In this document: one piece after another, positions 14,640 to 43,399 of the stretch | Layout of the letters: the number at the start of each line of letters is the position of its first letter | Position numbering within the stretch: the stretch's first letter is position 1 | NCBI GenBank assembly: GCA_964354655.1 | Contig: CAYHAL010000003.1 | Coordinates: forward strand, 3,670-67,669 | Direction: 5' to 3' | From: an uncultured Dehalococcoidales bacterium | GTDB taxonomy: Bacteria > Chloroflexota > Dehalococcoidia > Dehalococcoidales > E44-bin46 | Length of the DNA: 64,000 nucleotides | Made by a program: the position numbers and the translations under genes | The notes under the pieces: generated by a model | Told to the model about the DNA's origin: nothing | The model's database searches: none | What the model saw: the letters and a program-made list of their open reading frames with translations, nothing else

Positions 14640-14655
14640 GCGCTAAAAAATTATT

Positions 14656-14682
14656 GGGGGCGGTATTTAAAATACCGCCCCC
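14656..14682 (+). terminator. GC-rich intercistronic hairpin (partial terminator / mRNA stabiliser) after the SBP gene
   Basis: GGGGGCGGTATT (14656-14667) pairs with AATACCGCCCCC (14671-14682). There is no T-tract on the + strand, so probably not a full terminator. Confidence 0.4.
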
Positions 14683-14722
14683 AAAAGCAATCCAAGTTTT
14701 AGATCCGAGGTTGAACTAAGAT

Positions 14723-16556: not shown

Positions 16557-16585
16557 GATTGCTCCCGCCAAGCTGGTTATTAAAA

Positions 16586-16630
16586 AATAACCCGAGTAAG
16601 TAGGTCATTACTCGGGTTATTTTTATTTTT
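16586..16630. terminator. Bidirectional Rho-independent terminator between convergent livM and livG
   Basis: AATAACCCGAGTAA (16586-16599) pairs with TTACTCGGGTTATT (16608-16621). An A-tract precedes it and TTTTATTTTT follows. Confidence 0.7.
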
Positions 16631-16671
16631 GTCGTTAAAATAGCCGTTACCGAGCTATAGGTAAGTTGATA

Positions 16672-17442: not shown

Positions 17443-17836
17443 AAACCAGCCCTCCTTTCCTACCATGGTATGAATAAAAAGCAGAGCTACTGGTGTGAAT
17501 TTAGCATAGGTGGCTTAGTTTGTCAATAGAGTGTGGGTGGTGGTTCTGTTCGGCTGACGTTGATAACCCTAGAATAGATTAAGCAATTATCACCTTCAAA
17601 AGGCCTCATTAGCTGTCGGCAAAGCTTGTGCCTGTGGGATTTTATCAGCTTACGCCGCTCTTCATCCTCGCTAATGGTCCCCTCCTTCCACTTCTCGGCA
17701 ACAATGCTTGACACGAGGGCAGGCGTGTGCTACACTTCCCGCCGTAAGCTGGTAGTGGGCTGAAAAATAGCCGGCTTTTAAGCGTAACCACAATCGTTTA
17801 TTTTTGCTGCTCTAACAATAGCCAGAATTTTTATTT

Positions 17837-18673
17837 ATGATGTCTATTACATTAACAGAAACTCAAAAACAACGCCTGCGAGAATTGGATGCTGATACAA
17901 ACTTGGTAGAAAAGGTATTCAGCAATGCCCAAGAGAGGGACGCAAGTTTCAAGATGATAGAGAAAAGGTTGATTGGAGAGGAAAAACAGCGTTTACAAAA
18001 CCTCCGCAACTATCATCGCTACCCCATGATTTGCCAAGTAGAGAGGACCCTTGTAGATAAGCTTACAGAAGAAGGTTTTGTACAAGTCATTACTCCGATA
18101 ATAATAACTAAAAGGTTTTTAGAAAAGATGTCTATCACCGCCAACAATCCCCTGATAAATCAGGTTTTTTGGCTCAGTAAGAATAAATGTTTACGGCCTA
18201 TGCTGGCACCGAATCTTTATCATCTCTTAAGACGGCTTGTTCGCTTATGGGAAAAACCTATTCGTATTTTTGAAATAGGCCCATGCTTTCGCAAAGACTC
18301 TAAAGGGAGTGAGCATCTAAATGAGTTTACCATGTTAAACCTTGTTGAGTTGGGCTTATCCCAAGAAAGCAGACTTGAGCGGTTAAAAGAGTTGATTTCC
18401 CTCTTAATGGAGGCTGTAGGTATAAATGAGTACCAATTGGTTTCGAAGCCGTGTGAAGTCTATGGGGAAACAGTGGACATCATGGCTGGTACCGAACTCT
18501 GTTCGGCAGTCGTGGGTCCCCATCCATTAGATGACGCCTGGGGAATAGTCGACCCGTGGGTGGGATTAGGGTTTGGTTTGGAGAGGCTGGTGATGGTGAG
18601 ACAGGGATATCAAAATATTCAGAGAGTGGGACGCAGCCTCATATATCTTGATGGAATTAGACTGAACATTTAA
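17837..18673 (+). CDS. pylSc: Pyrrolysyl-tRNA synthetase, catalytic C-terminal protein (bacterial split form)
   Basis: 278 aa of class II aaRS core with PylRS-like segments: RPMLAPNLY, EIGPCFRKDSKGSEHLNEFTMLN and GLGFGLERL. It is followed by pylB and pylC. Confidence 0.9.
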   Translation: MMSITLTETQKQRLRELDADTNLVEKVFSNAQERDASFKMIEKRLIGEEKQRLQNLRNYHRYPMICQVERTLVDKLTEEGFVQVITPIIITKRFLEKMSITANNPLINQVFWLSKNKCLRPMLAPNLYHLLRRLVRLWEKPIRIFEIGPCFRKDSKGSEHLNEFTMLNLVELGLSQESRLERLKELISLLMEAVGINEYQLVSKPCEVYGETVDIMAGTELCSAVVGPHPLDDAWGIVDPWVGLGFGLERLVMVRQGYQNIQRVGRSLIYLDGIRLNI

Positions 18674-18715
18674 GTAATCTGATAAGTAATCTGATAAGAA
18701 GTTGATATTAAGATT

Positions 18716-19831
18716 GTGATAAGAAACAATAGCTGTTTTTTGATAGAGGAAATATTAGATAAAGCACTCTGCGAGGAGCCTCTAAGCAGGGGGGAGATTC
18801 TTTATCTACTTAGATTAAATAAAGCTGAAGAAGTAAACAAACTTTTTACAGTAGCACAAAGATTAAGACGTCGATACTTTGGTAATAACATTTTTCTTTA
18901 TGGGTTCTTGTACTTCTCCACGTGGTGTCGCAATAACTGCGCTTTCTGCTGTTATCGCGCCTCCAATAGATTATGCCAGCGGTATCGAAAGACTGACCGC
19001 CAAATAATTGAGGTAGCCCTCGACATGGCAGCATCCGGTGTTCACTTGCTCGATTTAACCATGGGGGAGGACCCTTTTTATTACGAAAAAGAGGATGGTT
19101 TTGAACCACTGTTGCATTTGATAAAAGAAGTTAAAAGGGAAACATCTTTACCTATAATGATTTCCTTTGGAGCTATTCCCGACGAAGTTTTAAAGGAACT
19201 ATTTGAGACAGGGGCGGAATGGTATGCTTGCTATCAGGAAACCCATAATGAAAAACTCTTCTATCAGCTTCGGTTGGGCCAGAGTTACAGTGATAGGCTT
19301 AACAAAAAATATAAGGCGGCTAGGTTGGGCCTACTCATAGAGGAGGGGATATTGAGTGGGGTGGGGGAATCATTAGATGATGTAGCTGACTCCATGGAAG
19401 AGATGCGGAAGATGGGGGCTCATCAGGTACGGGTTATGAATTTTATTCCTCAACAGGGAACCCCCATGCAGGATTTCCCACCGCCCCCCAAAATGCGTGA
19501 GCTGCTGATTATTGCTGTTCTGCGTCTACTATTTCCCCGTAGGTTGATACCTGCCTCTCTCGATGTATATGGCATTGATGGGCTCAAGGGAAAGCTAGAA
19601 GCCGGAGCTAATGTAGTGACTTCATTGATTCTTCCCCATTCGGAAATGGTGGGTGTAGCCCAAAGTACTTTGGATATCTGTGAAGGTTATCGAACGGTAA
19701 AAGGAATAACCCCTATACTCAATGAATTGGGATTAACCAAGGCAGAGCTTCATGATTATGTCTCATGGATTGAGAATGAAAGGAAAAGCTATATAAACAC
19801 ATACCGCTTCAGGGAAAAGGTGTTATTGTGA
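18716..19831 (+). CDS. pylB: Radical SAM methylornithine synthase
   Basis: 371 aa with the radical SAM motif CRNNCAFC. It sits between pylSc and pylC. GTG start. Confidence 0.9.
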   Translation: MIRNNSCFLIEEILDKALCEEPLSRGEILYLLRLNKAEEVNKLFTVAQRLRRRYFGNNIFLYGFLYFSTWCRNNCAFCCYRASNRLCQRYRKTDRQIIEVALDMAASGVHLLDLTMGEDPFYYEKEDGFEPLLHLIKEVKRETSLPIMISFGAIPDEVLKELFETGAEWYACYQETHNEKLFYQLRLGQSYSDRLNKKYKAARLGLLIEEGILSGVGESLDDVADSMEEMRKMGAHQVRVMNFIPQQGTPMQDFPPPPKMRELLIIAVLRLLFPRRLIPASLDVYGIDGLKGKLEAGANVVTSLILPHSEMVGVAQSTLDICEGYRTVKGITPILNELGLTKAELHDYVSWIENERKSYINTYRFREKVLL

Positions 19832-21009
19832 GAGTAGCCATTGTTGGGGGGAAACTGCAGGGAGTTGAAGCGGCTTTCCTAGCTCGTGAAGCAGGGTGGG
19901 AAGTAATTCTTATCGATAGGAAACAGAGCCCACCAGCAGCCAGATTATGCCAATCTTTTTATCACTGTGATGTTGTTAGAGATGTTTCATCTTTACCTCG
20001 GTTATTAGAAAAAGTTGATTTGATTATCCCGGCAGTTGAGGATGTTATTGCCCTTAGAGCTTTACAGAAATGTGCTGCCGAGATAAACATCCCTTTAGCT
20101 TATGATGCCAAAGCATATTTTATCAGCCATTCCAAGAAGCGTTCTAACCGCCTATTTGAAAAATTGGGCATTCCCTTGCCCCAAAGTTGGCCCCAGTGTG
20201 GACTGCCACTTATAGTAAAACCATCTGCCTCAAGCGGGAGTCATGGAGTATCCAAGCTATGCACTGAACAGGAACTGGGTGATTTTATTAAACGGGTAGG
20301 TTCAGGGCTGAAACACTGGATTTTACAGGAATATGTGGAGGGTCCGTCCTATTCTATCGAGGTCTTGGGTTTAGTTGGACGTTACGTAGCTCTCCAGGTC
20401 ACCGAGCTCGAGATGGATGGCGACTATGACTGTGAACGGGTTCTCGCCCCTGCCGAAATTCCAGAGTCTTTAGATAGGCAAATTAAAGAAATTGCCCTCA
20501 CTATTGCCAAGAGCCTTCGTTTGAAAGGAATTATGGATGTTGAGGTTATCCTTGACCATGGTGGTGTTCCTAGGGTGTTAGAAATTGATGCCCGACTTCC
20601 AAGTCAGACTCCTACCGCAGTTTATGAGTCCACAGGGATTAATATGTTGGAACTATTAGGGCACATATTTGTCACAGATACGATGCCTGTAATCCCTGAA
20701 ATAAAAGCATTAAGAGGAGTTGTCTACGAGCATATTAAGGTTTCCCAAAATGGTTTAGAATTTCTGGGAGAACATATTATAGGAGAAGTCGATTCCCTTG
20801 AAATTGTCCACGATTTTTTTGGAGCCGACGTAAGTCTGACAAACTTTAATTCATCGTCATTTCCTTGGGTAGCTACGTTGATTACTACCGGAGAAAGCCG
20901 AGAACAAGCGTGGCTTAAACGTCAGCAAGTTATTGAAAATATTAAAAGTTATCTTGGAAGACCCACTCGCTTCCAAAGCCAGCCTGAAGAGATGGTAAAA
21001 ACGGGTTAA
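19828..21009 (+). CDS. pylC: ATP-grasp 3-methylornithine--L-lysine ligase
   Basis: 393-aa ATP-grasp fold protein that overlaps the pylB stop by 4 nt. Its last 6 codons lie inside the pylT-derived repeat. Confidence 0.85.
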   Translation: MRVAIVGGKLQGVEAAFLAREAGWEVILIDRKQSPPAARLCQSFYHCDVVRDVSSLPRLLEKVDLIIPAVEDVIALRALQKCAAEINIPLAYDAKAYFISHSKKRSNRLFEKLGIPLPQSWPQCGLPLIVKPSASSGSHGVSKLCTEQELGDFIKRVGSGLKHWILQEYVEGPSYSIEVLGLVGRYVALQVTELEMDGDYDCERVLAPAEIPESLDRQIKEIALTIAKSLRLKGIMDVEVILDHGGVPRVLEIDARLPSQTPTAVYESTGINMLELLGHIFVTDTMPVIPEIKALRGVVYEHIKVSQNGLEFLGEHIIGEVDSLEIVHDFFGADVSLTNFNSSSFPWVATLITTGESREQAWLKRQQVIENIKSYLGRPTRFQSQPEEMVKTG

Positions 21010-21067
21010 TCGGGAAGATCACGCAGACTCTAAATTTGTGTAGCCGAGTGTAACTCTTGCCCCGCCA
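21003..21067 (+). pseudogene. Degenerate pylT copy (tRNA-Pyl-like; acceptor and T stems disrupted)
   Basis: The sequence is GGGTTAATCGGGAAGATCACGCAGACTCTAAATTTGTGTAGCCGAGTGTAACTCTTGCCCCGCCA. The D arm, the 6-bp anticodon stem, the CUA anticodon loop and the T loop are all retained. The 5' acceptor is shortened (GGG versus GGGGGG), and 4 nt are missing from the 3' T-stem/acceptor region relative to 29854..29925. Confidence 0.55.
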
Positions 21068-21071
21068 TGAC

Positions 21072-21099
21072 TTGACTAGAATAACAGGGGAGGTATAAT
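21072..21099 (+). promoter_or_regulatory. Candidate sigma70-type promoter for the mtbC-mtbB pair
   Basis: TTGACT (21072-21077), 16-nt spacer, TATAAT (21094-21099). Confidence 0.5.
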
Positions 21100-21266
21100 A
21101 ATTTAATAATTGGATAAGAGACAAGGGAAGATTCAGTGTGGTAGGTGGGTTGCGTTTAACACTGGGCTGATGAGTTGATTTCAAAGTAGTGAAAGGGGGT
21201 TAAAATGTTTTAATACGTGAGTGTTGTTACCAGCAGGCATTTTATCCAATAAAGGAGGTCGATACT

Positions 21267-21920
21267 ATGGGAAAAGAGCAACAAGAATTATTAAAAGAGG
21301 CAAAAAATTCAATTATTAATTTCGATGTAGATAAGGCTAAGGAAACAGCCAAGAAAGGCTTGGCGCTTGGGATTACGCCGGCTGTAATAATAAGTGAGGG
21401 ATTTGTTCCTGGGATAACTGAGGTCGGTGATCTTTTTGATAGGGGACAATTATTCTTGCCGGAGTTGATATTGGCGGCCGAAGCCATGAAAGCCGGAACA
21501 ACTATATGTGAGGCTGCACTCCCCAAAAGTGAACTTAAGGCGAAGAAGAAGGTTGTAATAGGGACTGTAGAAGGAGATATTCACGACATTGGAAAATCAA
21601 TTGTCGTATCCTTCTTAATGGCCAACGGCTTTGAAGTCTATGATATAGGTAGAGATGCCCCAATTGAGAATTTTATTAATAAGGCTCGTGAGGTAAACGC
21701 AGATGTGATTGGAAGCAGTGCTTTATTGACGACAACTATGGAGGGGCAGAAGAAGATAGAGGAGGAGCTAAGGGAAGCCGGGTTGCGAGATAAAGTCAAG
21801 ACAATTGTGGGTGGAGCGCCGTGCAGCCAGGGATGGGCTGATCGGATAGGAGCCGATGCCTATGCTGAAAATGCTGTGGATGCAGTAATAAAGATAAAAG
21901 AATTAACCGGTTTAAGTTAA
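21267..21920 (+). CDS. mtbC: Methylamine-specific corrinoid protein (B12-binding, MtbC/MttC family)
   Basis: 217 aa with the B12-binding motif GDIHDIGK (DxHxxG) and ...GGAP. It lies directly upstream of mtbB and is a close paralogue of 32716..33366. Confidence 0.85.
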   Translation: MGKEQQELLKEAKNSIINFDVDKAKETAKKGLALGITPAVIISEGFVPGITEVGDLFDRGQLFLPELILAAEAMKAGTTICEAALPKSELKAKKKVVIGTVEGDIHDIGKSIVVSFLMANGFEVYDIGRDAPIENFINKAREVNADVIGSSALLTTTMEGQKKIEEELREAGLRDKVKTIVGGAPCSQGWADRIGADAYAENAVDAVIKIKELTGLS

Positions 21921-21944
21921 AAATATGTAGAAAGGAGGTGATTG

Positions 21945-23363
21945 ATGATGGCAAAGACGCTACAGCGCATGGGAGATGGTCGTATGGTGGAGATGACCGA
22001 GGCTGAGGTGAGGAAAGACATAGAAGAGGGGACTAAAGATGCTGCTAGCAGAGCCAAGGTTCCCCCGCTTTCTGAAGATGAGATAAAGCATATATTGGAT
22101 ATTTACACTCGGCCAGAAAGGGTTGTCAGCGTAGAGCCGGGGAACGAAGTTGTTCTATCCCATGATGAGGGTACCGTTAAAATAAATGCTGGTGTGTGTG
22201 GTGGAGCCGGATTAGGGATAGATTGCGGCAGGACGGTTGCCTCTGAGCTTTACGAGAGGGCGCTAGGTGCTGATATTATAGAATACGGCCATATTGACTA
22301 CAGCTTTAAGCCAATAAGGCCTATTTTGGCTGATGAGCGAATATTGGTGGAGCGAGCCTTATTGGTTACTACTGCCCCCTTCCTTTACGGGGCGATGCCC
22401 AACTTAGGCTTATATACTCAACCTGAAGGGCCCTTCCCCAATCCAACAGAACTGTTAAACAAGGGCCTTATAAAAGAAGCCAGGGAAAGCGGTGAAAGGA
22501 TGGTCGAGCAGGCGACTAACGATATGGTTTATATAGCCAGTGGTATCTATGAAGCTGGAGCCGATGCAATCAACTTTGATACTACAGGAGCGTTTGGAGA
22601 TCTAGACTTTGCCGCCGCTTTGACAGCAACTGAGCGCCTTAAGAAAAAGTATCCTGATATGTGTATAGAGATGGGGATGGCAGGGGAGTTTGTTCTAGGA
22701 ATACACGGAACGATAACCTATGATGGGGTGCGTTTGGCAGGTTTATACCCTCATCAACAGGTTAAATTAGCCGAGAAAGCTGGGGTTACTATTTTCGGAC
22801 CGGTGTGCAATATCGTCACTTCTAGGTCGTGTGCCTGGAATATAGCCCGTGTCATTACCTTCACCAAAGCCTGTGCTAAAGCTTCAAAGATACCAATCCA
22901 CAATAATATGGGAATGGGGGTTGGTGGCATTCCCTTGAATGATACCCCACCGGTAGATGCTGTAACCAGGGCGTCAAAAGCAGCTGTGGAAATCTGCCAG
23001 TTAGATGGGGTGTAGGTAGGCATTGGAGACATTCATGGCATGCTCGAAGCTCACGCCATGGCCTCAGGTATGGGTGGAATGCGTACCGCCGGAGATCTGG
23101 TGGCACGTATGGAAATGGCCAGAGGCATGAGAATTAAAGAAGCGAAAGAGTATGTCGCCAGCAAATTGAAGGTCTCGTTGAGGGAGCTCTCTGACCCGAT
23201 AGTCATGGGTGAGGTGAGAGATGAGCTTAAGCTAGGCCTCATTGCCCAGATGCCTAATCGTCCTAAGGGGATAGAGGCCAAGTTCCGTATTGCTGAACTA
23301 TTAGGAATCGAAATTAACTCGGTGAATAGATTCAAAGAAAAAGCCGGGCTTCCTGTTCGTTAA
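21945..23363 (+). CDS. mtbB: Dimethylamine:corrinoid methyltransferase with an in-frame UAG (pyrrolysine) codon at 23013-23015
   Basis: Track ORFs 21942..23015 and 23040..23363 share one frame and are separated by only a TAG. The joined product is about 472 aa and matches my recollection of Methanosarcina MtbB throughout (GHIDYSFKP, LYGAMPNLGLY, GMGVGGIP, DAVTRASKA, then TAG, then MRTAGDLVARME...KEAKEYVA). Confidence 0.88.
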
Positions 23364-23388
23364 ACCGAATAACTAATAGTGGGGGTGG

Positions 23389-23427
23389 AAAAAGACATCC
23401 ACCACCCCATATGGGGTGGTGGATGTC
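23389..23427. terminator. Perfect 15-bp hairpin between convergent mtbB and mtmB (terminator, T-tract on the - strand side)
   Basis: GACATCCACCACCCC (23394-23408), loop ATAT, GGGGTGGTGGATGTC (23413-23427). GGAAAAA precedes it, giving a U-tract for the minus-strand transcript. Confidence 0.7.
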
Positions 23428-23446
23428 TAGTGAGTTAAGCAACCTT

Positions 23447-24847
23447 TTACAGCTTAAACTCGAACCCAATTTTCTCCATGGTTTTCATTGCCTGCCCCAG
23501 CACTTGTAGATGCTCATCGGTGGGCTTCAGAGTGATAACGTTGTAGCACTCCTGGAAGGTCTTTCCTAAGGGTGCCGTGTTGAAGTTCCTCTTTGGCCCT
23601 GTCCCCTCGTAGTGGGTCACCAGCTTATCAAGTAAGTAGTTCACCTTTTCTGTCTCCATGCCGGCTACAGCTCGGGCGGCATAAGCCATCATGCGTGCTT
23701 CTATTGGGGTGGTGTAGTCTAGTCTCGTGCCTTTGGCCGAGGCGCAACCGCTCATAATCTCACGACCGCTAGCAGTATCGGTAATAGCCTGCCCAGCCGC
23801 CTCCAGCAAGCACATCTCAGTGCATGGTCCAGCGGCAGTATAATACTGGTTACCGGTGATAAAGTGTGAGTGGCGCTCAATAGCCATATTGGCATGCCCA
23901 GCGATCAACAACGTCTCCCTAGCCGTTGTGATTCCCCAGCGCACATGAGTTGGTCCATCCAGATGCCAGTCTGCTCCCACCAGTACGGGAGAGTTTAGAT
24001 GAGTGGCGGTGCAAACGATGGTGGTCTCTTCGAGCCCTCCGGCCCAGCCTCCCATGATAGGCATCTGCTCACACATAACAATATCGCCGTTCATCCTGTA
24101 ATGAGCAACAAAGGTAAGCGCCTCGAGATCAATCTTGAGCTCGCATAGCTGACTTACCTCATGATTATCACATGGTCTCATTCCTTCAGGAAAATCGGCA
24201 GCGATAACTCCCGCCGTGGTAAGCGGAGTCTCAGGGCCCTAGAAGCCCATCCCGGGGCGACCAGCTCGCCGTACTGCTTCACGAAGCGCCATTGCTTCTG
24301 CTTTAGCCGCCAAAATATCCCATGGGGTATTGGATGCCAAGGGGTGTCCATAGATAGTATTCCAAACCCCGTTGACGATGCAGTCTACCAAGGGCTCCCT
24401 GGCGAATGCTTCATGCGTCTCAATAAAGATATCCTCACTGACTGGGGCTCCAGTCGGCCCACCTTGGCACAGGGGTGGGCAGGGGTCATCAAAACTTCGG
24501 CCAGTCACACGCCGGGCATCCCGTCCCTCACCGATGACGATCTCACGAGGGACACCAGCCATAGTGTTCAGTATCTCCTCTTCGGTGTACTTGATGACAC
24601 GGCCGGTATCGATGCATAAAGTCCCACAGGTGACCAGCATCTCAAGGCCGGCCTGGAATAGGCGGTCTATCATATCCATATCAGTGGGGATAATCTTGGT
24701 CTTGTCGAACTTAAGATTATACTTTTCCTTTAATTTCCTTGCTGTTTCGGGGATGATTTTTCGATCCCATTCCGCCTCATCTACTTTGGGACCGGTAAGT
24801 GCCCGATCATAACTCTCGAACACATCACCCCTCTCTTTAACTACCAT
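23447..24847 (-). CDS. mtmB: Monomethylamine:corrinoid methyltransferase with an in-frame UAG (pyrrolysine) codon at 24241-24239
   Basis: Track ORFs 24239..24847 (202 aa) and 23447..24181 are in frame, and only a TAG interrupts them. The context is GRPGMG-TAG-GPET. Downstream segments NHEVSQLCELKIDL, WHLDGP, AAGPCTEMCLLEA, ITDTASGREI and GKTFQECY match remembered MtmB. Confidence 0.88.
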
Positions 24848-24962
24848 TTTCGCCTCCTTTATTTTGATTAAATCTTAGTTCATCACAGCTAAAAACTAAC
24901 CTGATATACCACCTCCTTTCTCTTAATTTGACAACACTATCTCACCGTATAAAGTTATAGTA

Positions 24963-24991
24963 TATTAAGTTAAGTATCATCGGCTTGTCAA
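24963..24991 (-). promoter_or_regulatory. Candidate promoter for mtmB
   Basis: On the minus strand: TTGACA (24991-24986), 17-nt spacer, TTAATA (24968-24963). Confidence 0.3.
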
Positions 24992-25149
24992 ATAAATGTT
25001 ATGGCTCATTAATCTTTGGTGATAACTTCTGGAGGCGATAGAGCTATTGAGGCGGCAAGAACCGTAAGTATTCCATAGAGGAGGAGATAAGGAAGGATAG
25101 TATTGGACGGGCATTGGAATTATACTTGATTGGACTATCAAAATGGCTA

Positions 25150-25857
25150 TTAGCCACCTAAATAGGCTTTCTTCACCTGTTCGTTTTCACGTAAGTCTTT
25201 GGCATCGCCCTTTAAGACAATGCTACCTGTCTCTAAGACATAGGCCTTTCGAGCCAGACTGAGAGCGAGGCGGGCATTCTGCTCCACTAAAACAATAGTT
25301 TTGCCCCCTTGGCTAATATCCTTTATGATTTTGGCGATCTCCATGACTAATATAGGCGACAAGCCCAGCGAGGGTTCATCCAAAAGGAGCAATTTAGGAT
25401 TGGACATCAGGCCACGCCCCATAGCCAGCATCTGCTGCTCACCACCGCTTAAGGTGCCGGCATATTGCTTCTGCCTTTCCTTTAGAACAGGAAAATGCCT
25501 AAAAACTTCTTCCAGGTCTCGGTTTACCCCGTCTTTATCTTCCCGCAGAAAGGCCCCCATGTAGAGGTTCTCCATCACCGTCATTTGGGGGAAGACCCTT
25601 CTTCCTTCGGGAACCTGAGCAATCCCCAGCTTATTGATTTTTTCGGGTGCTAATCTATCTATTCTCTGGCCTTCAAACCAGATTTCCCCCGAGGTGGGGT
25701 GCTTTAAGCCGGAGATAGCCCTCAAGGTGGTGGTTTTGCCTGCCCCATTGGAACCGATAAGGGTAACAATACTACCCTCTTCCACCTCCATGGAGACATC
25801 CCTAACGGCGGCTACCTTGTGATAATAAACCGTAACGTCCTTTACATTAAGCAACAC
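25150..25857 (-). CDS. livF: Liv-type ABC ATP-binding protein (LivF family), the only livF in the window
   Basis: Walker A GSNGAGKTT, signature LSGGEQQM, Walker B LLLLDEP. GTG start. It is preceded in frame by a 12-codon relic of a LivG C-terminus (EDAIEVYLGAEE, 25858-25893). Confidence 0.85.
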   Translation of the reverse strand: MLLNVKDVTVYYHKVAAVRDVSMEVEEGSIVTLIGSNGAGKTTTLRAISGLKHPTSGEIWFEGQRIDRLAPEKINKLGIAQVPEGRRVFPQMTVMENLYMGAFLREDKDGVNRDLEEVFRHFPVLKERQKQYAGTLSGGEQQMLAMGRGLMSNPKLLLLDEPSLGLSPILVMEIAKIIKDISQGGKTIVLVEQNARLALSLARKAYVLETGSIVLKGDAKDLRENEQVKKAYLGG

Positions 25858-25967
25858 TTCTTCTGCTCCTAAGTAGACTTCGATAGCATCTTCTCATTGA
25901 TGCCACTTTAGTAGTTAGGATACTACAAAATTATCTTCTTGTCAATATAGCCGAAGGAGGAACGAGG

Positions 25968-27800
25968 TTACTCCAAATGGGGATGCCTAGGGAAGTGCAT
26001 ACTCTCTATGAAGACCCGGCTGAAGTCCTTTAGATAGGAAAGCTCGAAGTATTCCACCTGCTCCGTCAGTCTTTGAATCTCTTCCCACTTCCCTCGATTT
26101 AGAAGGCAGAGCTTCGCTCCCTGTCCCGCCGTATTACCCACTGGCTTAATCTTGTTTAAGGGGAACTCGGGTAGCATTCCGATCCGAAGGACACTCTCCT
26201 TACTGACATAATTTCCAAAAGCCCCTGCCAAGTAGACCTTCTCCACCTCATTCAGGGTCACTCCCAACTCCCGCAACGCGATCTCTACCCCTGAGCGAAT
26301 AGCTCCCTTGGCCAACTGTAGCTCTCTCACATCCTGCTGGGTCAGGTAAATGGGTTTACTCCCATCACTCACCAGGAACTGAAGTTGGCCTTTCTCCCCC
26401 CGATGGATGCGATCACTGATGGGGAGGTTCGTCCGTTTCCCAAAGTTTCCCTTCTCATTGATTAACCCTACTTTGCAGAGCTCCCCCCCCAAGTCTATCA
26501 GTCCCGAACCACAGATCCCTTTTGGGACCCCATCCCCAATTATTTCCAGCCTTAAATCCTTGTCGTCTAGGAAAACGTGAGCCACTGCTCCAGGAAAAGC
26601 ACCCATTCCATACTTGATCCGTGCCCCCTCAAATGCTGGCCCCGCTGGTGTGGAGCATGCCAGTAAACGGTCTTTGTTTCCTAAAACAATTTCAGCGTTA
26701 GTTCCTATATCCACAAAGAGCTGGATACCTTTAGCTTGGTGAAGCCTGGTATAGAGAATACCGGCTGTGATGTCTGCTCCCACATAGCCTGAGATGCTGG
26801 GTAGGATGTGCACTTGCCCTTCTGGGTTCATGTCCAAGCCCAGCTCTAGCGCTGGCAGTATTAAGTTATCCCTCAGCACCGGGATGAAGGGGCTATGGTC
26901 AATGTTGGAGGGGTCTATGCCCGTGAAGAGGTGAATCATAGTGGGGTTCCCTGCCACAGTGGCTTTGTAGATATGGACAGGGCTCACCCTAGCTGCTTGA
27001 CACAACTGCTTAATCACCATGTTGATCCCTGAAGTTACCGCCATTTGCAGCTCCCTTAAACCCTCTTCTCCCTGCTCATGGACTTTTTTGATTCGACTGA
27101 TGACATCGTCCCCAAAGCTTCGCTGGGGGTTCATCCGGGAACGTACTGCAAGCTCCACACCTGTGTTTAGGCTTAAGAGATAGCCAGCTAGGGTTGTCGT
27201 CCCAATGTCTATAGCCACACCATACTGGGCTTCGGTTGTGTCCCCTGGTTCCAGGTCTAATACATGGTTTGCTGCCCAGGTTACCGTAAATTTAAAATCC
27301 CCTTCCCTAAGGAGGTTTGGGGCTTTCCTCAGAACTTGTAGGGGGAAAGTCAGTTGACCTTCCCCGAGTTCTTCTTGGAAACGAACGGTATCCGGGCGTT
27401 GGTCCTCTTGGCTTGGCGTGGGAAGCTCTAAATAAGCCTTTTTAACTCCGCTGTCCAAGGGGATACGAAGTACCTTGTTTAGTAGTTCCTTGGCGCGGAC
27501 AAGCTCTTCTACTTCAGGAATCTCCAGAACCAAATCCCGGTCAATATGCTGGATACAGGAAAGACGCCAGCCGGCTTCAAGCTCTGCCTCTGTCAGGTGC
27601 ACTCGCTCTGATTCAGCAGGCGCTCTAGCCCCCTTTGTGAAGAGGGCTCGACACTTCCCGCAGGTTCCCATCCCTCCACAAGCACTTGGCACGGAATAAC
27701 CCTGCCTGACAAGAAAGTGGAAAAGGTTCTCCCCTTCTTTAGCTTTTAACCTTTTCTTCTGGGGAAGGATGACGATGTTATATGTCTTTTCCTTCATCAT
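25968..27800 (-). CDS. RamA-like reductive activase of corrinoid enzymes (N-terminal 2Fe-2S ferredoxin + ASKHA/DUF4445 domain)
   Basis: 610 aa. The N-terminus has the plant-type ferredoxin motif CGGMGTCGKCR...C, followed by a long ASKHA-like region (DIGTTT, DIGTNAE). Confidence 0.75.
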   Translation of the reverse strand: MMKEKTYNIVILPQKKRLKAKEGENLFHFLVRQGYSVPSACGGMGTCGKCRALFTKGARAPAESERVHLTEAELEAGWRLSCIQHIDRDLVLEIPEVEELVRAKELLNKVLRIPLDSGVKKAYLELPTPSQEDQRPDTVRFQEELGEGQLTFPLQVLRKAPNLLREGDFKFTVTWAANHVLDLEPGDTTEAQYGVAIDIGTTTLAGYLLSLNTGVELAVRSRMNPQRSFGDDVISRIKKVHEQGEEGLRELQMAVTSGINMVIKQLCQAARVSPVHIYKATVAGNPTMIHLFTGIDPSNIDHSPFIPVLRDNLILPALELGLDMNPEGQVHILPSISGYVGADITAGILYTRLHQAKGIQLFVDIGTNAEIVLGNKDRLLACSTPAGPAFEGARIKYGMGAFPGAVAHVFLDDKDLRLEIIGDGVPKGICGSGLIDLGGELCKVGLINEKGNFGKRTNLPISDRIHRGEKGQLQFLVSDGSKPIYLTQQDVRELQLAKGAIRSGVEIALRELGVTLNEVEKVYLAGAFGNYVSKESVLRIGMLPEFPLNKIKPVGNTAGQGAKLCLLNRGKWEEIQRLTEQVEYFELSYLKDFSRVFIESMHFPRHPHLE

Positions 27801-27812
27801 TTGTTGGGTGGC

Positions 27813-28565
27813 TTATCTAGCCTTAAGACCCCGCTGGATCCATTCCCTTTCCCCCTCAACGCACTTTTGGGTTGACTTCTCTCGCACCGTGCCAAGGGGC
27901 ATAGCACAGGCATAAGACTTCCGCGGGTCCATCATGCACGACTCAGTGAGGTGCACTCCGATGTGGCTTCCGTCGACAACGGTGAATAACTTCTTCTGTT
28001 CCCGCGTGTCCCAATCTCCGTAACCAGGACTCCACCAGTAGACTACTACCCCACCGCAATCTCTATATGCCGGACACTTCTTGCCGATACAGATGCCGTG
28101 GGTGATTGCTTGATAGCCCTCGGGGCGGACATGGTCTTGGATTATCTCCCTCACCTTATAGGCCATGATATCCACAGCCGCTGAGCCAAACATATCCAAA
28201 ATATATCCCAGAACAGAATCCCCACCCTGGATAAGCTTCATAGCCTCCTCCTCCACACGCGGTCCAATGGTGATTATAAAAGCGGCTAGCTCTTTTGCCT
28301 CACGATGGCGAAGCGCCAAATCCCGGCTGTCAAATGAAACACCACCCTCGACCTCTACAGAAGAAGAGGTTACTCTCCCTATTTGGGAAATACCGTAACA
28401 CGCTACCGGCTCTAGTAGGGTCGGCCCAATCTCCATTGCCTGGTGAAAGACTTTTTGAATAGCCGGTGATGCTTGACTCGAGTTAGGATAGCCCAAATAA
28501 CGCCACACCTCATCTGAGCTTACCTCCACGTTTGAGAACTCAGCCTCAGGTACTATCTGAAGCAT
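27813..28565 (-). CDS. MetH activation-domain-like protein (vitamin B12-dependent methionine synthase activation region family)
   Basis: 250 aa with EVWRYLGY near the N-terminus and SPGYGDW...LF...IGVHLTESCMMDPRKS near the C-terminus. Both resemble the Met_synt_B12 domain, as recalled from memory. Confidence 0.5.
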   Translation of the reverse strand: MLQIVPEAEFSNVEVSSDEVWRYLGYPNSSQASPAIQKVFHQAMEIGPTLLEPVACYGISQIGRVTSSSVEVEGGVSFDSRDLALRHREAKELAAFIITIGPRVEEEAMKLIQGGDSVLGYILDMFGSAAVDIMAYKVREIIQDHVRPEGYQAITHGICIGKKCPAYRDCGGVVVYWWSPGYGDWDTREQKKLFTVVDGSHIGVHLTESCMMDPRKSYACAMPLGTVREKSTQKCVEGEREWIQRGLKAR

Positions 28566-28586
28566 AGCCCCCTCCTTTATCTCACT

Positions 28587-29390
28587 TTAACTCATTTTGC
28601 TTCTTACATACCGAACATATTGAAGACAGTGGGCATCAATCCCTAATAGAGCTTCTGAGGCTCGCAGGATGTTTTTCATTTCTTCATCCTTGGGATTAAT
28701 AACAGCCATATCCAATCCTGCCTCAAGAAGCATGGCTAAAAAGGCTTGGTTGAGCAGGGTGCGGCTGGGTAATCCAAAGGAGACATTGGATAACCCTGTT
28801 GTTGTCTTCACCCCTCGGCTCCCATAGCACCTCTTGATCTCCCGTATGGTATTGATGACAACACGGGCTTGGTCTGGATTACTCCCGATGGACATCACTA
28901 AAGGGTCTATGAACAACCGCTGCAGACTTACTCCGGCTTCTTCTAGAGTATTAATTAGCTGTTCGACTTCCTGAAGGCGCTCCTCCACGGTGTTAGGCAT
29001 CCCCGTCTTTCCCCCCATGGTCAGACCGATAATATCGGCATCGTACCCTTTAACAATGGGGATGAGCCCCTGTTGTAGTCTAGGGTCATTATTGATGGAG
29101 TTGATAACAGGGCGGGCTCGACAAAGCTTTAGTCCTGCTGCCATAGCCTCAGGTTTAGGGGTGTCGATGGCTAGGCGTACCTCTCCCACCTCATCATAAA
29201 TAAGCCCAATCACCCACTTCATGTCATCAATCTCCTGCTCCATGCTGGTAGCAGTATTAATATCAAGAATGTCAGCCCCAGCCTCTACCTGCTCTCGGGC
29301 AAGACGCCGGATAGTAGCTTCATCCTTGGCTTGAAGAGCCTCCTTGACCGCTTTTCGCGTCGAGTTCAATAATTCTCCAATAATTAACAC
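28587..29390 (-). CDS. Pterin-binding methyltetrahydrofolate:corrinoid methyltransferase (MeTr/MtgA/AcsE-like)
   Basis: 267 aa of DHPS-like pterin-binding barrel: IIGELLNSTRK, GADILDINT and TTGLSNVSFGLP. Confidence 0.75.
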   Translation of the reverse strand: MLIIGELLNSTRKAVKEALQAKDEATIRRLAREQVEAGADILDINTATSMEQEIDDMKWVIGLIYDEVGEVRLAIDTPKPEAMAAGLKLCRARPVINSINNDPRLQQGLIPIVKGYDADIIGLTMGGKTGMPNTVEERLQEVEQLINTLEEAGVSLQRLFIDPLVMSIGSNPDQARVVINTIREIKRCYGSRGVKTTTGLSNVSFGLPSRTLLNQAFLAMLLEAGLDMAVINPKDEEMKNILRASEALLGIDAHCLQYVRYVRSKMS

Positions 29391-29461
29391 TTCGTCCCTC
29401 CTTTAATCGGTATCGGCTATTTTACTCTCTCTCCGTTTTCCTATTCCTCGTCCTCATTATC

Positions 29462-29824
29462 TTAATCCTTAGCCCCCACCTCTCGTGTCTTTCCCCCCAA
29501 ATTGTCTAAATAGGCAATCCGGCGACGCTTAAAAACTGTTGCCGAATATTTTTCAATCTTCCATTTAGGAATTCCACATTTCTCGCATGTCCTAGAAAAC
29601 CATTTATTACGAAGCCATCGGGCAGCACGACTATTTCTAGAATCGTGTATCACCATCTGTTTATTACAATGAGTAACCACATAAGCATAAGAATCACTGG
29701 TAATTTCAAAGGTTTTGATTCCATGGAGAACTCCCCGCCGGGAAGGCCATAGTTTTATCTTTTCTACCAATTTAAAAAGGGGGACTCGTCTCCAATAGAT
29801 TTTTTTTCGTGTCTTACCCGACAA
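29462..29824 (-). CDS. pylSn: Pyrrolysyl-tRNA synthetase N-terminal tRNA-binding protein (bacterial split form)
   Basis: 120 aa with a TTG start behind GGGGGAGAGAG. Segments KLWPSRRGVLHGIK..., NSRNSRAARWLRNKWFSRTCEKCG resemble the PylRS N-domain (zinc-binding, basic). It lies immediately downstream of pylT. Confidence 0.8.
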   Translation of the reverse strand: MSGKTRKKIYWRRVPLFKLVEKIKLWPSRRGVLHGIKTFEITSDSYAYVVTHCNKQMVIHDSRNSRAARWLRNKWFSRTCEKCGIPKWKIEKYSATVFKRRRIAYLDNLGGKTREVGAKD

Positions 29825-29853
29825 CTCTCTCCCCCATTATTTTGATCAAATTG

Positions 29854-29925
29854 TGGCGGGGGGTCCGAGAGTTACACTCGGCTACACAAATTTAGAGTCT
29901 GTGTGATCTTTCCGATTAACCCCCC
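29854..29925 (-). tRNA. pylT: tRNA-Pyl (anticodon CUA), CCA encoded
   Basis: The minus-strand sequence is GGGGGGT-T-AATC-GGAAA-GATC-A-CACAGA-CTCTAAA-TTTGTG-TAG-CCGAG-TGTAACT-CTCGG-ACCCCCC-G-CCA. It has a 7-bp acceptor, one nucleotide between acceptor and D stem, a 5-nt D loop without GG, a 6-bp anticodon stem, a 3-nt variable loop and a non-canonical T loop. These are the published hallmarks of tRNA-Pyl. Confidence 0.9.
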
Positions 29926-29940
29926 GTTTTTACCATGCCT

Positions 29941-30771
29941 TCACTGAACACAACTGGCATGAACAAACATGGTAGCCACACCAATCTCCAGCACATCATG
30001 AATCAAACGCTCTTTGACCAAGAAATAAGCCTCTTCACTTAATCCCAGCGGTATCCCGGGAGCAGCAATAAAAGTTTCTGGCTTGATATGTCTTGCCTGT
30101 ATAATATTAGCCGAAGGTGAAGCATCAAAAAATACTGTATATCGCCTAAGTGCCTCTTCTAGATTCCTTTCCACTGTAATTTCATGCCCTTTAACCAGTG
30201 ACTCCATTCTATCTTGATTAGGGTCAAAAGCTGCTACCTTCGCTCCCTTCTTTTTAAGAGATAAAACTGCATTCCAGCCCACCCGACCTGCTCCCCCAAT
30301 CACTAACACCTGGCGCTGGCTTAAATCTCCTGCCATGGCTTCTAATGCCGAAACATATCCTTTTGCTGTTGCCTCTACATTATCAATAATCCTCCTTAAG
30401 GGAAAGTTCAGGGCAATAAACCGGTTATCATCAGCCAAAAAAACAATGTCTGCGCCTTTCTCAATCCCTTCCGCCAGTCCAGCTATATCGCTATCCCTTG
30501 TTTTAAAAGCATTAACTCCAATGTGAATCAAAATTCCTTCAACCGCCTCAACAAAGTTTTCAATAACTCCTTGTCCCGAGGTTATGGGAACCACAGCTAC
30601 CGTATGGGAACCGATGGCAGCTCTTACCTTTTCTTCGCTGTCTTCTATAGAGCGACTGGCAATCTCTTTGAGTGACAAACCTGTTTTTCGAACTAACTCA
30701 GCCTCATAGGCAGGAAGTTTCTGTATTATATCCATTATATCTTCTTTTTTCAGGCGCGTCACCTCATTCAC
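29941..30771 (-). CDS. pylD: Pyrrolysine synthase (NAD-dependent dehydrogenase)
   Basis: 276 aa with the Rossmann motif VLVIGGAGRVGWNA. It is adjacent to pylT/pylSn and completes the pylBCD set. Confidence 0.85.
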   Translation of the reverse strand: MNEVTRLKKEDIMDIIQKLPAYEAELVRKTGLSLKEIASRSIEDSEEKVRAAIGSHTVAVVPITSGQGVIENFVEAVEGILIHIGVNAFKTRDSDIAGLAEGIEKGADIVFLADDNRFIALNFPLRRIIDNVEATAKGYVSALEAMAGDLSQRQVLVIGGAGRVGWNAVLSLKKKGAKVAAFDPNQDRMESLVKGHEITVERNLEEALRRYTVFFDASPSANIIQARHIKPETFIAAPGIPLGLSEEAYFLVKERLIHDVLEIGVATMFVHASCVQ

Positions 30772-30966
30772 CCTCTGGACGATGAAAATATACCAGCAAG
30801 ACCCACCCCTTCAGACTGGCTTTGGAAGCAGTGGGTCTTCCAAGGTAACTCTATCTTGAAACTTGCATCCCTTTCTTGGCTATCGAAAATTCTAACATAC
30901 CCCGCTCGCTCCTTGTCAAGCGCAGTAGCTTTCCCCCCTGATTCAACTCCTAGCTTTCTGAAGAGT

Positions 30967-30997
30967 TTGACAAAATCGATTCTAACGGTGTTATAAT
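30967..30997 (+). promoter_or_regulatory. Candidate promoter for mttB-mttC (extended -10)
   Basis: TTGACA (30967-30972), then TGTTATAAT ending at 30997. The spacer is 19 nt, which is long, so confidence is low. Confidence 0.3.
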
Positions 30998-31205
30998 GAA
31001 GCCAAACTGGTTAGTATTCCCTTCCTTTATAAGCCTGGTGCTGCGCTAGCACTGGGGAAATTTATAGCATAATCGGTCTTGCTGACGCTAGTGTAAAGGC
31101 AAAAGAGTGGATCCCAAAATGGTGAAAGGAGGTGAGAAATTAGGGTTAGGATTAATTTAGTTTCAAAATAGTGAGGTTAAAAAAATTAAAGGAAGGAGGG
31201 GAAAA

Positions 31206-32678
31206 ATGATTAGAGGAACGAGAGCCTCATATACACAACTTTCAGGCTGTGGTCTCAATATGTTTACCGATGATGAATTAGCTGAGCTGCATAGAGCCAC
31301 ACTGGATGTTCTAGAAGATGGCGGCATCATGGTGCTCAATGATGAAGCGCAGGAGATTTTCTACTCCCACGGCTGTAAAGTCGATAAGAAAACTAACATC
31401 GTCAAGATACCCCCTTACCTCGTCAATGAGGCAATAAATTCAGCTCCATCAAAGGTACTGCTTGCCGGTCGAAATCCCAAGTATGACATCGTCTTGGAAG
31501 GCACCAGGGTGGCAAACACCACCTTTGGTGTAGGCATAAAGGTGCTTGATTTAGACACGGGCAAACACAGAAACTCGACAAACAAAGATCTGGCTGAATC
31601 CGCAATATTAGCCGATGCTATTGAGGGAGTAGATGTTTTTACCCAGTCAGTGGTCCCCAGAGATGCACCTAGTCAGGTGGAAGACCTTATTGCTGCCGAG
31701 ACATGTCTTAGCAATTGTAGCAAACACTTCCACCATGTTGATATATTGTCTACCGAGAGTGTCAGAAGGTATTTTGACATGGGTGCTGCCATAGCCGGAA
31801 GCGCTGAGGAGATGAGGCGGCGACCGGTTTGTTCTATTCTAATCTGCCCGGTCAGCCCGTTGCAGCTTAGTCCTGAAGCCTGCGAGGTTATTATTGAATC
31901 GGCAAGGTTAGGCATACCCTGTAACATTTTGTCAATGGCGCTATCTGGGGGTACTGCCCCAGTCACCAATGCAGGAACACTGATAGTCCATAATGCCGAG
32001 GTGCTGGGGGGCATAACTTTAAGCCAGCTTACTAAGAAGGGAGCACCGGTAATCTATGGCAGCTCCACCACCATGTTCGATCTAGCCCTGGCCATCGCAC
32101 CGGTGGGAGCACCGGAAATGGGCATGATAAGCGCAGCGGTAGCCAAGCTTGGCCAGTATTACAACCTGCCGACTTATGTCTCCGGGACCTAGGCAGATTC
32201 TAAGGTACCTGATGCGCAGGCAGCTCACGAAAAAACGATAACAAATCTGCTGCCGGCCATCGCTGGGGCTAATCTGATTTATGGCATGGGTATGTTAGAA
32301 TCAGGACAGACTTGGAGTCATGAGCAACTGGTAATTGATAACGACATTGTAACTATGGTTAAACGGGTGATTCAGGGGATCGACGTTACCGATGATACAA
32401 TGGCCGTTGACATCGTAAAGCAGGCTCATAAGATAAAAGACTTCTTACATCAGAAACACACCATTCAGTTTATGAGAAGTCAATCAAGACCAAAATTGAT
32501 TGACCGCACTACCCGGGGAACTTGGGAGGCTAAGGGAGGCAAAGATTTAACCCAGAGGGCAAAAGAAGAAGCACGCAGGATCATAAAGACCCATCAACCT
32601 GAGCCTTTAAGCGATGATGTAAAGAAGACGCTACGCGAAATTGTTGACAGTGCTAGAAAAGAACTTGTACCTGATTGA
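31206..32678 (+). CDS. mttB: Trimethylamine:corrinoid methyltransferase with an in-frame UAG (pyrrolysine) codon at 32190-32192
   Basis: Track ORFs 31206..32192 and 32286..32678 share one frame. The only interruption is the TAG in ...YVSGT-TAG-ADSKVPDAQAAHEKT.... The joined product of about 490 aa has an MttB-family sequence (LNDEAQEI, ANLIYGMGMLESG). Confidence 0.9.
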
Positions 32679-32715
32679 TAACTTTCTAATAACCAGAAGA
32701 AAGGAGAGCACTACT

Positions 32716-33366
32716 GTGGCAAAAGCACAAGAGATATTAGCAGCGGCAAAAAAAGCCATTATTGACTACGATGTGGTTAAGGCTGAGGAGGTTGCCAGGG
32801 AGGCTTTGGCTAGTGGTGTTGATCCGGTGGCACTGATAGAAAAGGGGTTTACTGCTGGAATAGCTGAGGTTGGTGACCGTTTTGATAAGGGGGAGGCATA
32901 CTTGCCAGAATTAATATTGGCGGCTGATGCCATGAAAGCAGGAACAGCAGTATGTGAGGCGGCACTCCCTAAAGGAACAATTAAGGAAAAGAAGAAGGTA
33001 GTAATAGGGACGGTGGAAGGAGATATTCACGACATCGGGAAGTCAATTGTTGCTTCCTTTTTAGCCGCCAACGGATTTGAGGTTCACGACATCGGTAGAG
33101 ATGCTCCTGCTGAGAAATTTGTGGAAACAGCTCGTGAGGTAAAAGCAGATGTGGTTGGGGCTAGCGCTCTATTGACAACAACTATGGAGCAGCAGAAGAA
33201 GATAGTGGAAGCGCTGAAAGAAGCCGGGCTGCGAGATAAAGTTAAAATAATTGTCGGTGGAGCACCAACCAGCCAGGAATGGGCTGAACAGATCGGAGCC
33301 GATGCCTATGCTGAAAATGCTGCGGAGGCAGTAGCTAAGGTAAAGCAATTAACCGGTTTGCAATAA
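32716..33366 (+). CDS. mttC: Trimethylamine-specific corrinoid protein (B12-binding)
   Basis: GTG at 32716 behind AAGGAGAG. The GDIHDIGK motif is present. It is highly similar to 21267..21920. The track start at 32641 overlaps mttB and is unlikely. Confidence 0.85.
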   Translation: MAKAQEILAAAKKAIIDYDVVKAEEVAREALASGVDPVALIEKGFTAGIAEVGDRFDKGEAYLPELILAADAMKAGTAVCEAALPKGTIKEKKKVVIGTVEGDIHDIGKSIVASFLAANGFEVHDIGRDAPAEKFVETAREVKADVVGASALLTTTMEQQKKIVEALKEAGLRDKVKIIVGGAPTSQEWAEQIGADAYAENAAEAVAKVKQLTGLQ

Positions 33367-35100: not shown

Positions 35101-35186
35101 GCCAGGTATAAGCTAGACAGAGCAGTACCTAGCCGGGGTGACAGGGATTAGTTACCAGCCCCGGCTAGGTTTGATAGGAAGTTTAT

Positions 35187-37023: not shown

Positions 37024-37056
37024 GAGAAATCCACACTAAATCAACACTGAGGAATA

Positions 37057-37095
37057 GAAAAAGCCTGAGTAATTATAATTACTCAGGCTTTTTCT
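37057..37095. terminator. Bidirectional Rho-independent terminator between convergent livM and livG (unit 2)
   Basis: AAGCCTGAGTAATT (37061-37074) pairs with AATTACTCAGGCTT (37077-37090), flanked by an A-tract and a T-tract. Confidence 0.75.
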
Positions 37096-37125
37096 AAACT
37101 GGTACCGTAAAAGTCTATTACCTAA

Positions 37126-41811: not shown

Positions 41812-41812
41812 A

Positions 41813-42472: not shown

Positions 42473-42482
42473 GAGGCGAAGG

Positions 42483-43376: not shown

Positions 43377-43399
43377 AAGAGTTAGCAAGGAGGGGAAAG

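Follow-up and report, generated by a model that had tools for sequence, protein, structure and literature searches.

The stretch of DNA analyzed here, a window of 64,000 nucleotides (nt) from contig CAYHAL010000003.1 of an uncultured Dehalococcoidales bacterium (assembly GCA_964354655.1), carries between positions 17,837 and 33,366 the genes for the synthesis and genetic encoding of pyrrolysine (Pyl) together with three genes for Pyl-dependent methylamine methyltransferases. The sequence and its comparison with related loci make it very probable that this is a functional Pyl-decoding and methylamine-demethylation locus and that its pyl genes were split into two halves as the result of an inversion. 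A Pyl system in this lineage has been reported since 2017; what the analysis adds is an account of how the cluster was probably rearranged, and the finding of a degenerate second copy of the tRNAPyl gene (pseudo-pylT).

The pyl genes and their arrangement

The Pyl proteins were scored with the NCBIfam equivalog models against the curated cut-offs (in bits):

17837-18673, + strand: pylSc, catalytic subunit of pyrrolysyl-tRNA synthetase (PylRS); TIGR02367, 360 (cut-off 178)
18716-19831, + strand: pylB, methylornithine synthase (radical SAM); TIGR03910, 482 (cut-off 348)
19828-21009, + strand: pylC, 3-methylornithine--lysine ligase; TIGR03909, 433 (cut-off 248)
29462-29824, - strand: pylSn, tRNA-binding subunit of PylRS; TIGR03912, 127 (cut-off 51)
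29854-29925, - strand: pylT, tRNAPyl with a CUA anticodon and an encoded CCA end, between pylD and pylSn
29941-30771, - strand: pylD, dehydrogenase of the last step of Pyl synthesis; TIGR03911, 267 (cut-off 150)

The system is that of bacteria with a split PylRS, with separate PylSc and PylSn and with PylB, PylC and PylD all above the cut-offs. In a comparison with the PDB, the best solved relative of PylSc was the Desulfitobacterium hafniense PylSc (3dsq/2zni, E 1e-96). The TIGR03909 match spans residues 2-374 of the 393 amino acids (aa) of PylC, a protein of 377 aa in the relatives, the difference being an extra C-terminal tail of 16 aa. An exact look-up of the PylD sequence gave no match, probably reflecting a different start used by the gene callers. 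The + strand carries pylSc-pylB-pylC (17.8-21.0 kb) and the - strand pylD-pylT-pylSn (30.8-29.5 kb), and the window does not hold a contiguous one-strand cassette with pylT at its 5' end (pylT-Sc-B-C-D-Sn or pylSn-Sc-B-C-D). The gap between pylC and pylSn, besides methylamine genes, contains genes for a LivF-type ABC ATPase, a RACo-type corrinoid activase and a conserved 250-aa protein. Most of this had been claimed in the original prediction, made from the sequence without database searches. Indeed, all six components are present, five as proteins above the equivalog cut-offs and one as a located tRNA(CUA); the products do belong to the PylS, PylB, PylC and PylD families, all of them matching above the NCBIfam cut-offs; and the division into two separated halves on opposite strands is borne out by the coordinates and recurs in independent assemblies. 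The placing of methylamine genes between the halves was right as well, the spacing (about 8.8 kb) being the part that did not stand: the actual gap is 8.45 kb.

Neither ARAGORN nor the Rfam tRNA model called pylT in the window, and the gene was located by eye and by folding. It forms a 72-nt cloverleaf of -27.2 kcal/mol (z -3.05 relative to shuffled sequences). The hallmarks of tRNAPyl include a CUA anticodon, an anticodon stem of at least 6 bp, a 5-nt D-loop, a short variable loop and no T-psi-C (PMC3941956). These are found in pylT, with CUA in a 7-nt loop on a stem of 6-7 bp, a D-loop GGAAA (5 nt), a variable region of 2-3 nt and a T-loop UGUAACU devoid of T-psi-C; the tRNAPyl feature of lacking G18G19 is not clearly recognizable, the D-loop containing GG. 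The window proteins and pylT were then mapped onto 26 related loci (designated below by L numbers). Copies of pylT 93-100% identical to that of the window were found in eight related loci of a first set, and copies 92-96% identical in five more distant ones, in all cases between pylD and pylSn. Across the loci the basal pair of the anticodon stem varies from A-U through G-U to G-C, and the A10/C25 mismatch of the window is a G-C pair in L014 and L016.

The methyltransferase genes and their in-frame TAG codons

Three methylamine methyltransferase genes lie in the same region:

21942-23363, + strand: mtbB, dimethylamine methyltransferase, in-frame TAG at 23013-23015; TIGR02368, 538 bits (cut-off 369)
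23447-24847, - strand: mtmB, monomethylamine methyltransferase, in-frame TAG at 24239-24241; Pfam PF05369, 658 bits
31206-32678, + strand: mttB, trimethylamine methyltransferase, in-frame TAG at 32190-32192; TIGR02369, 724 bits (cut-off 525)

TIGR02368 and TIGR02369 match MtbB and MttB, respectively, end to end and across the TAG, and MtmB gave no match to the NCBIfam models. When translated with read-through, each gene exhibits exactly one internal stop, which is always TAG; that of MtmB aligns with residue 202 of the solved Methanosarcina barkeri MtmB1 (1tv2/1l2q, E 2e-160), the Pyl position of that enzyme. These family matches and single TAGs agree with the early assignment of the three genes, which together cover all three methylamines.

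The conservation of the TAGs and the ratio of nonsynonymous to synonymous substitution rates (dN/dS) were analyzed using orthologues from L004, L012, L025 and L022, relatives that range from close ones down to 64% identity. Each TAG occupies the same alignment column in the relatives, with no second internal stop, and that of mttB is kept in L012 and L022; 3' of the TAGs, dN/dS (0.05-0.23) is as low as 5' of them (mtmB 0.12; mtbB 0.05-0.23). Since the sequence after each TAG is under purifying selection, we conclude from these alignments that mtmB, mtbB and mttB are not pseudogenes; the conserved TAG column and the low ratios after it speak against the truncated pseudogenes that the original prediction had considered as the opposite outcome. 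Matches to the Rfam families PYLIS_3 and PYLIS_2 start exactly at the TAGs of mttB (93 bits) and mtbB (65 bits), both above the gathering score, and a PYLIS_1 match at the mtmB TAG reaches 43.8 bits, below the gathering score of 70. The alignments contain many non-canonical pairs, so that these matches may mirror conserved coding sequence and not structure.

Gene order in related loci and the origin of the split

Two layouts were seen among the related loci. In L024 (GCA_964627215.1, a 251-kb NCBI contig, PylSc 70% identical) the genes follow one another in the order pylSc, corrinoid protein, pylB, pylC, pylD, pylT, pylSn, MeTr (a methyltransferase gene described below), X (the 250-aa protein) and RACo; L025 and L026, from the Dehalococcoidales metagenome-assembled genome (MAG) GCA_018399795.1, have the L024 order through pylSn, followed by mtbB and MeTr, and in L014, L015 and L017 pylD is located directly 3' of pylC. 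In L022 and L023 (PylSc 82%), on the other hand, pylSc-pylB-pylC is followed at once by an inverted RACo-X-MeTr-pylSn-pylT-pylD, which is the collinear block of L024 in cleanly inverted form. The split layout with methylamine genes and livF inside the inversion is that of the window, L004, L011, L012, L013 and L018, the last five being independent assemblies. In all of these split and collinear loci, pylT lies between pylD and pylSn; pylD-pylT-pylSn is a Chloroflexota-type order, unlike that of D. hafniense.

The two sides of the split carry traces of each other:

20947-20989, + strand: 3' tail of pylC, with an inverted-duplicate partner at 30809-30850 (40/43 nt identical, E 2e-11)
30809-30850, - strand: this partner, a relic of the pylC 3' end (about 42 nt) upstream of pylD
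21003-21067, + strand: pseudo-pylT, inverted relative to pylT and 53/55 identical to its central part (E 2e-23)

The pylC relic is homologous to the sequence at which pylC and pylD truly join in the collinear L014 and L017, and its local alignment, with a possible degenerate extension included, reaches a score of 42.5, shuffled sequences attaining at most 19; in the 434-nt spacer upstream of pylD, blastn and tblastn detected only the last ~50-90 nt of pylC and no other PylC similarity. In the pseudo-pylT, three bases of the 5' acceptor arm are missing, as is most of the T-stem and acceptor arm on the 3' side; its folding (-13.1 kcal/mol, z +0.66) does not surpass that of shuffled sequences, and the stop codon of pylC lies inside it. 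L001, an independent Logan contig with a sequence identical to that of the window, stops inside pseudo-pylT, as would be expected of an assembly broken at a repeat. In L003, L004 and L011 the relic of about 118 nt between two CTTG repeats is absent and PylC has 377 aa. Neither pseudo-pylT nor the pylC relic figured in the original prediction; together they would explain the origin of the split.

The simplest reading of these relics, as far as the compared sequences allow it to be drawn, is an inversion with a junction duplication. The ancestral Chloroflexota cassette would have been collinear, in the order pylSc-(corrinoid)-pylB-pylC-pylD-pylT-pylSn-MeTr-X-RACo, and the block from pylD onwards would have been inverted in this clade, the left breakpoint duplicating the pylC tail, pylD and pylT. 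The redundant pylD would then have been deleted, at a junction in a common TGAAG that is seen directly in the sequences, and the redundant pylT would have decayed to pseudo-pylT; the whole ~118-nt relic would have been deleted between the CTTG repeats in L003, L004 and L011. Frameshifted pylD fragments (residues 166-260, 69-73% identity) were observed 3' of livK2, the binding-protein gene of a neighboring transporter, in L019 (3844-4133) and L020 (1607-1896); they are further evidence of the duplication and decay of pyl genes in the clade.

Points against this reading and alternative explanations

Several observations weigh against a functional locus with an inversion-derived split. The relic between pylC and mtbC is confined to the window and to identical Logan contigs, L003, L004 and L011 being without it, which might represent either a deletion shared by these three at a later time or a secondary gain in the window. 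Moreover, the collinear L017 (PylSc 85%) is closer to the window than the split L022 (82%), so the identities neither order nor separate the two layouts cleanly, and recombination or more than one inversion may have taken part. As for function, the cluster encodes two corrinoid proteins for three methyltransferases, TAG is not avoided as a stop codon (it ends 11 of 49 genes of the window, or 22%, with 29 TAA and 9 TGA), and the incorporation of Pyl at UAG is something that we infer from the genes.

Among the other explanations, one would replace a single inversion and its short junction duplication with an inverted duplication of the whole, or most, of the pyl cluster, followed by a reciprocal loss that left pylSc-pylB-pylC in one copy and pylD-pylT-pylSn in the other. 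It would account for the fact that each side carries a remnant of the other half (pseudo-pylT 3' of pylC, a pylC tail 5' of pylD), and the decayed pylD fragments of L019 and L020 show that pyl copies do duplicate and decay in the clade. However, a large duplicated copy has left no other trace upstream of pylD, where at both the DNA and the protein level similarity to PylC stops after its last ~50-90 nt, and the inversion of L022 and L023 involves exactly the block that is collinear in L024; we regard this scenario as unlikely. Far less probable still is that the system is decaying, with TAG-interrupted pseudogenes in place of methyltransferases and a cassette split because it is no longer used. 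The clear degeneration of pseudo-pylT and the frequency of TAG as a true stop in the window would fit it, but the six pyl components are intact, with the Pyl proteins above the equivalog cut-offs, and each methyltransferase gene has exactly one internal stop, always a TAG and always at the known Pyl position, which is kept in relatives down to 64% identity with selection as strong after it as before.

The last explanation invokes an artefact: either the assembly would be mis-joined at the inverted pylT repeats, or the cassette would derive from Firmicutes or Deltaproteobacteria through recent transfer or wrong binning. A near-identical inverted repeat of 55 nt might well mislead an assembler, and L001 does break inside it; in addition, the GC content drops to 0.43 across pylSc-pylC (18000-22000), the remaining 2-kb bins of the window having 0.45-0.55, a difference that would also fit an old horizontal acquisition of the cassette. 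Nevertheless, L004 and L011 have the same orientation over the whole region without pseudo-pylT, so the layout does not depend on the repeat and is not an assembly artefact; L012, L018 and L022 agree, and on the same contigs leuCD-leuB and other housekeeping genes follow the order of the window. LeuC itself points to Chloroflexi/Dehalococcoidia, even though one 82% match is labelled Omnitrophota. We consider an artefact the least probable of these explanations, with hardly any weight left to it.

Host lineage and previous reports

Scanning GTDB species genomes with PylC gave one close match, in an uncultured Dehalococcoidales MAG (89% identity), and the taxonomy rests on that single MAG and on named homologues. 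The nearest named PylSc homologues at NCBI are from Chloroflexota (75%) and Dehalococcoidales (70%), and LeuC, encoded in the same window, matches at 76-80% proteins named as Chloroflexi, Chloroflexota and Dehalococcoidia, besides the Omnitrophota one. Judging from these matches, the contig is of Dehalococcoidales/Chloroflexota origin. The pyl region is integral to this chromosome, because L004, a 36-kb JGI contig, remains collinear with the window over the whole stretch between leuB and the pyl genes, these included.

The PylC, PylSc and LeuC matches are thus in keeping with the Chloroflexota/Dehalococcoidia host guessed in the original prediction. The novelty that it saw in a Pyl-decoding lineage outside the classically described Firmicutes and Deltaproteobacteria is not supported: a Chloroflexi clade of PylRS, which co-occurs with SepRS, already appears in Mukai et al. 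2017 (mBio, PMC5424206, Fig. 3 and Fig. S6), and the NCBI pipeline already names these pyl proteins in Chloroflexota MAGs. The contig belongs to a lineage known to encode Pyl, and the taxonomic novelty falls with that. Interrupted pyl clusters, too, were already known. In the text and supplements of Mukai et al. 2017 (PMC5424206), figures aside, we found no description of the inverted split gene order or of the relics. No SepRS gene turned up among the open reading frames (ORFs) scanned in the window.

Corrinoid, methyl-transfer and accessory genes

The other genes of the cluster are the following:

21267-21920, + strand: MtbC-like corrinoid protein; TIGR02370, 248 bits (cut-off 215); Pfam B12-binding and B12-binding_2
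25150-25857, - strand: LivF-type ABC ATPase; best NCBIfam match LivF, E 3e-77, below the cut-off
25968-27800, - strand: RACo/RamA-like reductive activase of corrinoid proteins; Pfam Fer2, RACo_linker, Raco_middle and RACo_C_ter
27813-28565, - strand: conserved 250-aa protein X; weak match to the MetH activation domain (PF02965, 25.6 bits, cut-off 25)
28587-29390, - strand: methyl-tetrahydrofolate:corrinoid methyltransferase (MeTr/MtxA-like); NF005719, 276 bits (cut-off 259); Pfam Pterin_bind
32713-33366, + strand: MttC-like corrinoid protein; TIGR02370, 250 bits (cut-off 215)

The two TIGR02370 matches and the NF005719 match, all above the cut-offs, support the two corrinoid proteins and the methyl acceptor module directed to tetrahydrofolate (THF) that had been proposed. 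For mttC, the GTG at 32713 was chosen as the start codon, the ORF as called mechanically opening at 32641, and all 217 aa of the MttC-like protein are matched in L012 and L019. The AcsV and RamA families match the RACo-type activase below their cut-offs. Protein X is encoded between MeTr and RACo in L004, L011, L012, L013, L022, L023 and L024 (56-86% identity), and in L010 MeTr is followed by X, where the contig ends. The LivF-type ATPase gene is kept at the same place in L003, L004 and L011.

In the proposed working of the system, which follows the biochemistry known for these families, PylB, PylC and PylD would convert two lysines into pyrrolysine, and PylSc, aided by the tRNA-binding PylSn, would charge tRNAPyl(CUA) with it. 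The tRNA would read the single UAG of mtmB, mtbB and mttB and thereby bring Pyl into the active site of every product, and the three enzymes would demethylate methylamines onto Co(I) corrinoid proteins. The pterin-binding methyltransferase would move the methyl group to THF, and the RACo-type activase would re-reduce the corrinoid when oxidised. The oxidation of methyl-THF might be carried out by the products of MetF/MetV genes and their HdrA-like flavoprotein partners, located about 8 kb downstream of the cluster. Just 3' of a second set of ABC transporter genes, the stretch 38553-48351 encodes MetV (DUF5981), MetF, a ferredoxin-like protein and HdrA/GltD-like flavoproteins (417, 543 and 1485 aa), MetF/MetV being at 41813-43376 and the adjoining HdrA-like flavoproteins at 38553-41428 and 43894-48351. 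This region resembles an electron-bifurcating-type methylene-THF reductase and could oxidise the methyl-THF of the cluster.

Comparison with known systems

The D. hafniense cassette (pylT-pylSc-pylB-pylC-pylD-pylSn) has the same six components as the window, a PylRS split into PylSc and PylSn, and the same coupling to methylamine/corrinoid methyltransferases and a THF acceptor. It differs in that the window has pylT between pylD and pylSn and not upstream of pylSc, two opposite halves 8.45 kb apart, a pseudo-pylT and a Chloroflexota host. The Chloroflexi clade of Mukai et al. 2017 (PMC5424206) resembles the window in its pylSc and pylSn from metagenomic Chloroflexi/Dehalococcoidia and in its Pyl-dependent methyltransferases. 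The collinear L024 (GCA_964627215.1) and L025 (GCA_018399795.1) share with the window the gene set, a pylT 92-96% identical and the pylD-pylT-pylSn-MeTr unit, which continues as X-RACo in L024; they are contiguous and on one strand, with a corrinoid gene between pylSc and pylB, whereas in the window the block from pylD is inverted and set apart by mtbC-mtbB-mtmB-livF. Finally, Methanosarcina, with pylTSBCD and mtmB/mtbB/mttB, has the same three Pyl-dependent methyltransferases, the MtmB TAG of the window aligning with Pyl202 of M. barkeri MtmB1 and the Rfam PYLIS matches starting at the TAGs of the window; its PylS is a single fused gene and its acceptor is coenzyme M, compared with the split PylRS and the pterin-binding THF-type methyltransferase of the window.

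The taxonomic range known for pyrrolysine is not widened by the window, which does not reveal a new mechanism either. It offers a well-resolved complete locus, according to which Pyl enzymes in principle enable a Dehalococcoidales lineage to use mono-, di- and trimethylamine and pass the methyl group to THF, which is relevant to the competitors of methanogens for methylamines in anoxic sediments. It also offers a concrete case in which a genetic-code-expansion cassette would have been rearranged, and not lost, through inversion, junction duplication and decay of a redundant tRNA gene.

TAG usage and possible control of recoding

Since TAG ends 11 of the 49 genes of the window, UAG decoding in this organism must be conditional or tolerated, as in other Pyl bacteria; in Acetohalobium arabaticum, expression is reportedly dependent on trimethylamine. 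A scan of the window for long frames with TAG read-through left only mtmB, mtbB and mttB as plausible. Two further candidates, leuC-TAG-leuD and an ABC ATPase-TAG-permease pair, were rejected as recoded genes, the adjoining genes being in frame by chance: leuC ends in TAG (5805-5807) with leuD directly 3' in the same frame, and the ABC ATPase gene (10166-10924, - strand) ends in TAG (10166-10168) with the permease gene next in frame. If tRNAPyl read these TAGs, fusion proteins would result.

One promoter-like site was noted near the split:

21072-21099, + strand: TTGACT-16-TATAAT upstream of mtbC, matching 11/12 consensus positions; identified from the consensus match alone

An equivalent TTGATT/TATAAT is retained in L003, L004 and L011. 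The 14-nt motif TTTCAAARTAGTGA occurs at 21179-21192 in the mtbC leader and at 31161-31174 in the mttB leader, 45-75 nt 5' of the start codons. It is found only twice in the 64 kb, with a chance expectation of 0.02 for a motif picked by eye and post hoc, and CTTCAAARTAGTGA, which differs from it at the first base, lies upstream of mtbC/mtbB in L003, L004 and L011. The motif is a candidate operator or leader element. When the regions upstream of mtbC, mttB, mtmB, pylSc and the two livK genes were compared with one another by BLAST, no significant similarity was found.

The pyl/methylamine cluster is flanked by two Liv/Urt-type ABC sets (13128-17466 and 33628-37893), each made up of a binding protein, a LivG-type ATPase and two permeases, and the sole LivF-type ATPase gene (25150-25857) lies inside it, 8 kb from either set. 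The adjacency of mttC and livK2 is kept in L012, L018 and L019, and L020 has livK2 with no mttC mapped. Perhaps the flanking sets form a methylamine uptake system that uses one common LivF.

Given that TAG is still a normal stop and control would therefore be needed, it is tempting to speculate that UAG recoding is conditional and coordinated with methylamine uptake; we advance this tentatively and consider it rather unlikely as a whole. On this reading, pylD-pylT-pylSn and the THF module may since the split have formed a single transcription unit that starts divergently from mttB, and TTTCAAARTAGTGA could be the common operator in the mtbC and mttB leaders; pylSc-pylB-pylC lie just upstream of the promoter-like site of mtbC-mtbB. 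The two Liv/Urt-type sets, with their common LivF, could be methylamine importers, and methylamines would then be a new substrate class for this ABC family.

Two minor observations may be added. In GCA_018399795.1 the collinear pyl cluster lies directly 3' of prmC and prfA, the latter encoding RF-1, which reads UAG (L025, 5764-7682; L026, 1375-3293). A repeat linker of the (V/T)PPP type, PVTPPPVTPPPVTPPP, is present in the N-terminus of LivK2 (33700-33800), where other frames and strands contain simple-repeat ORFs.

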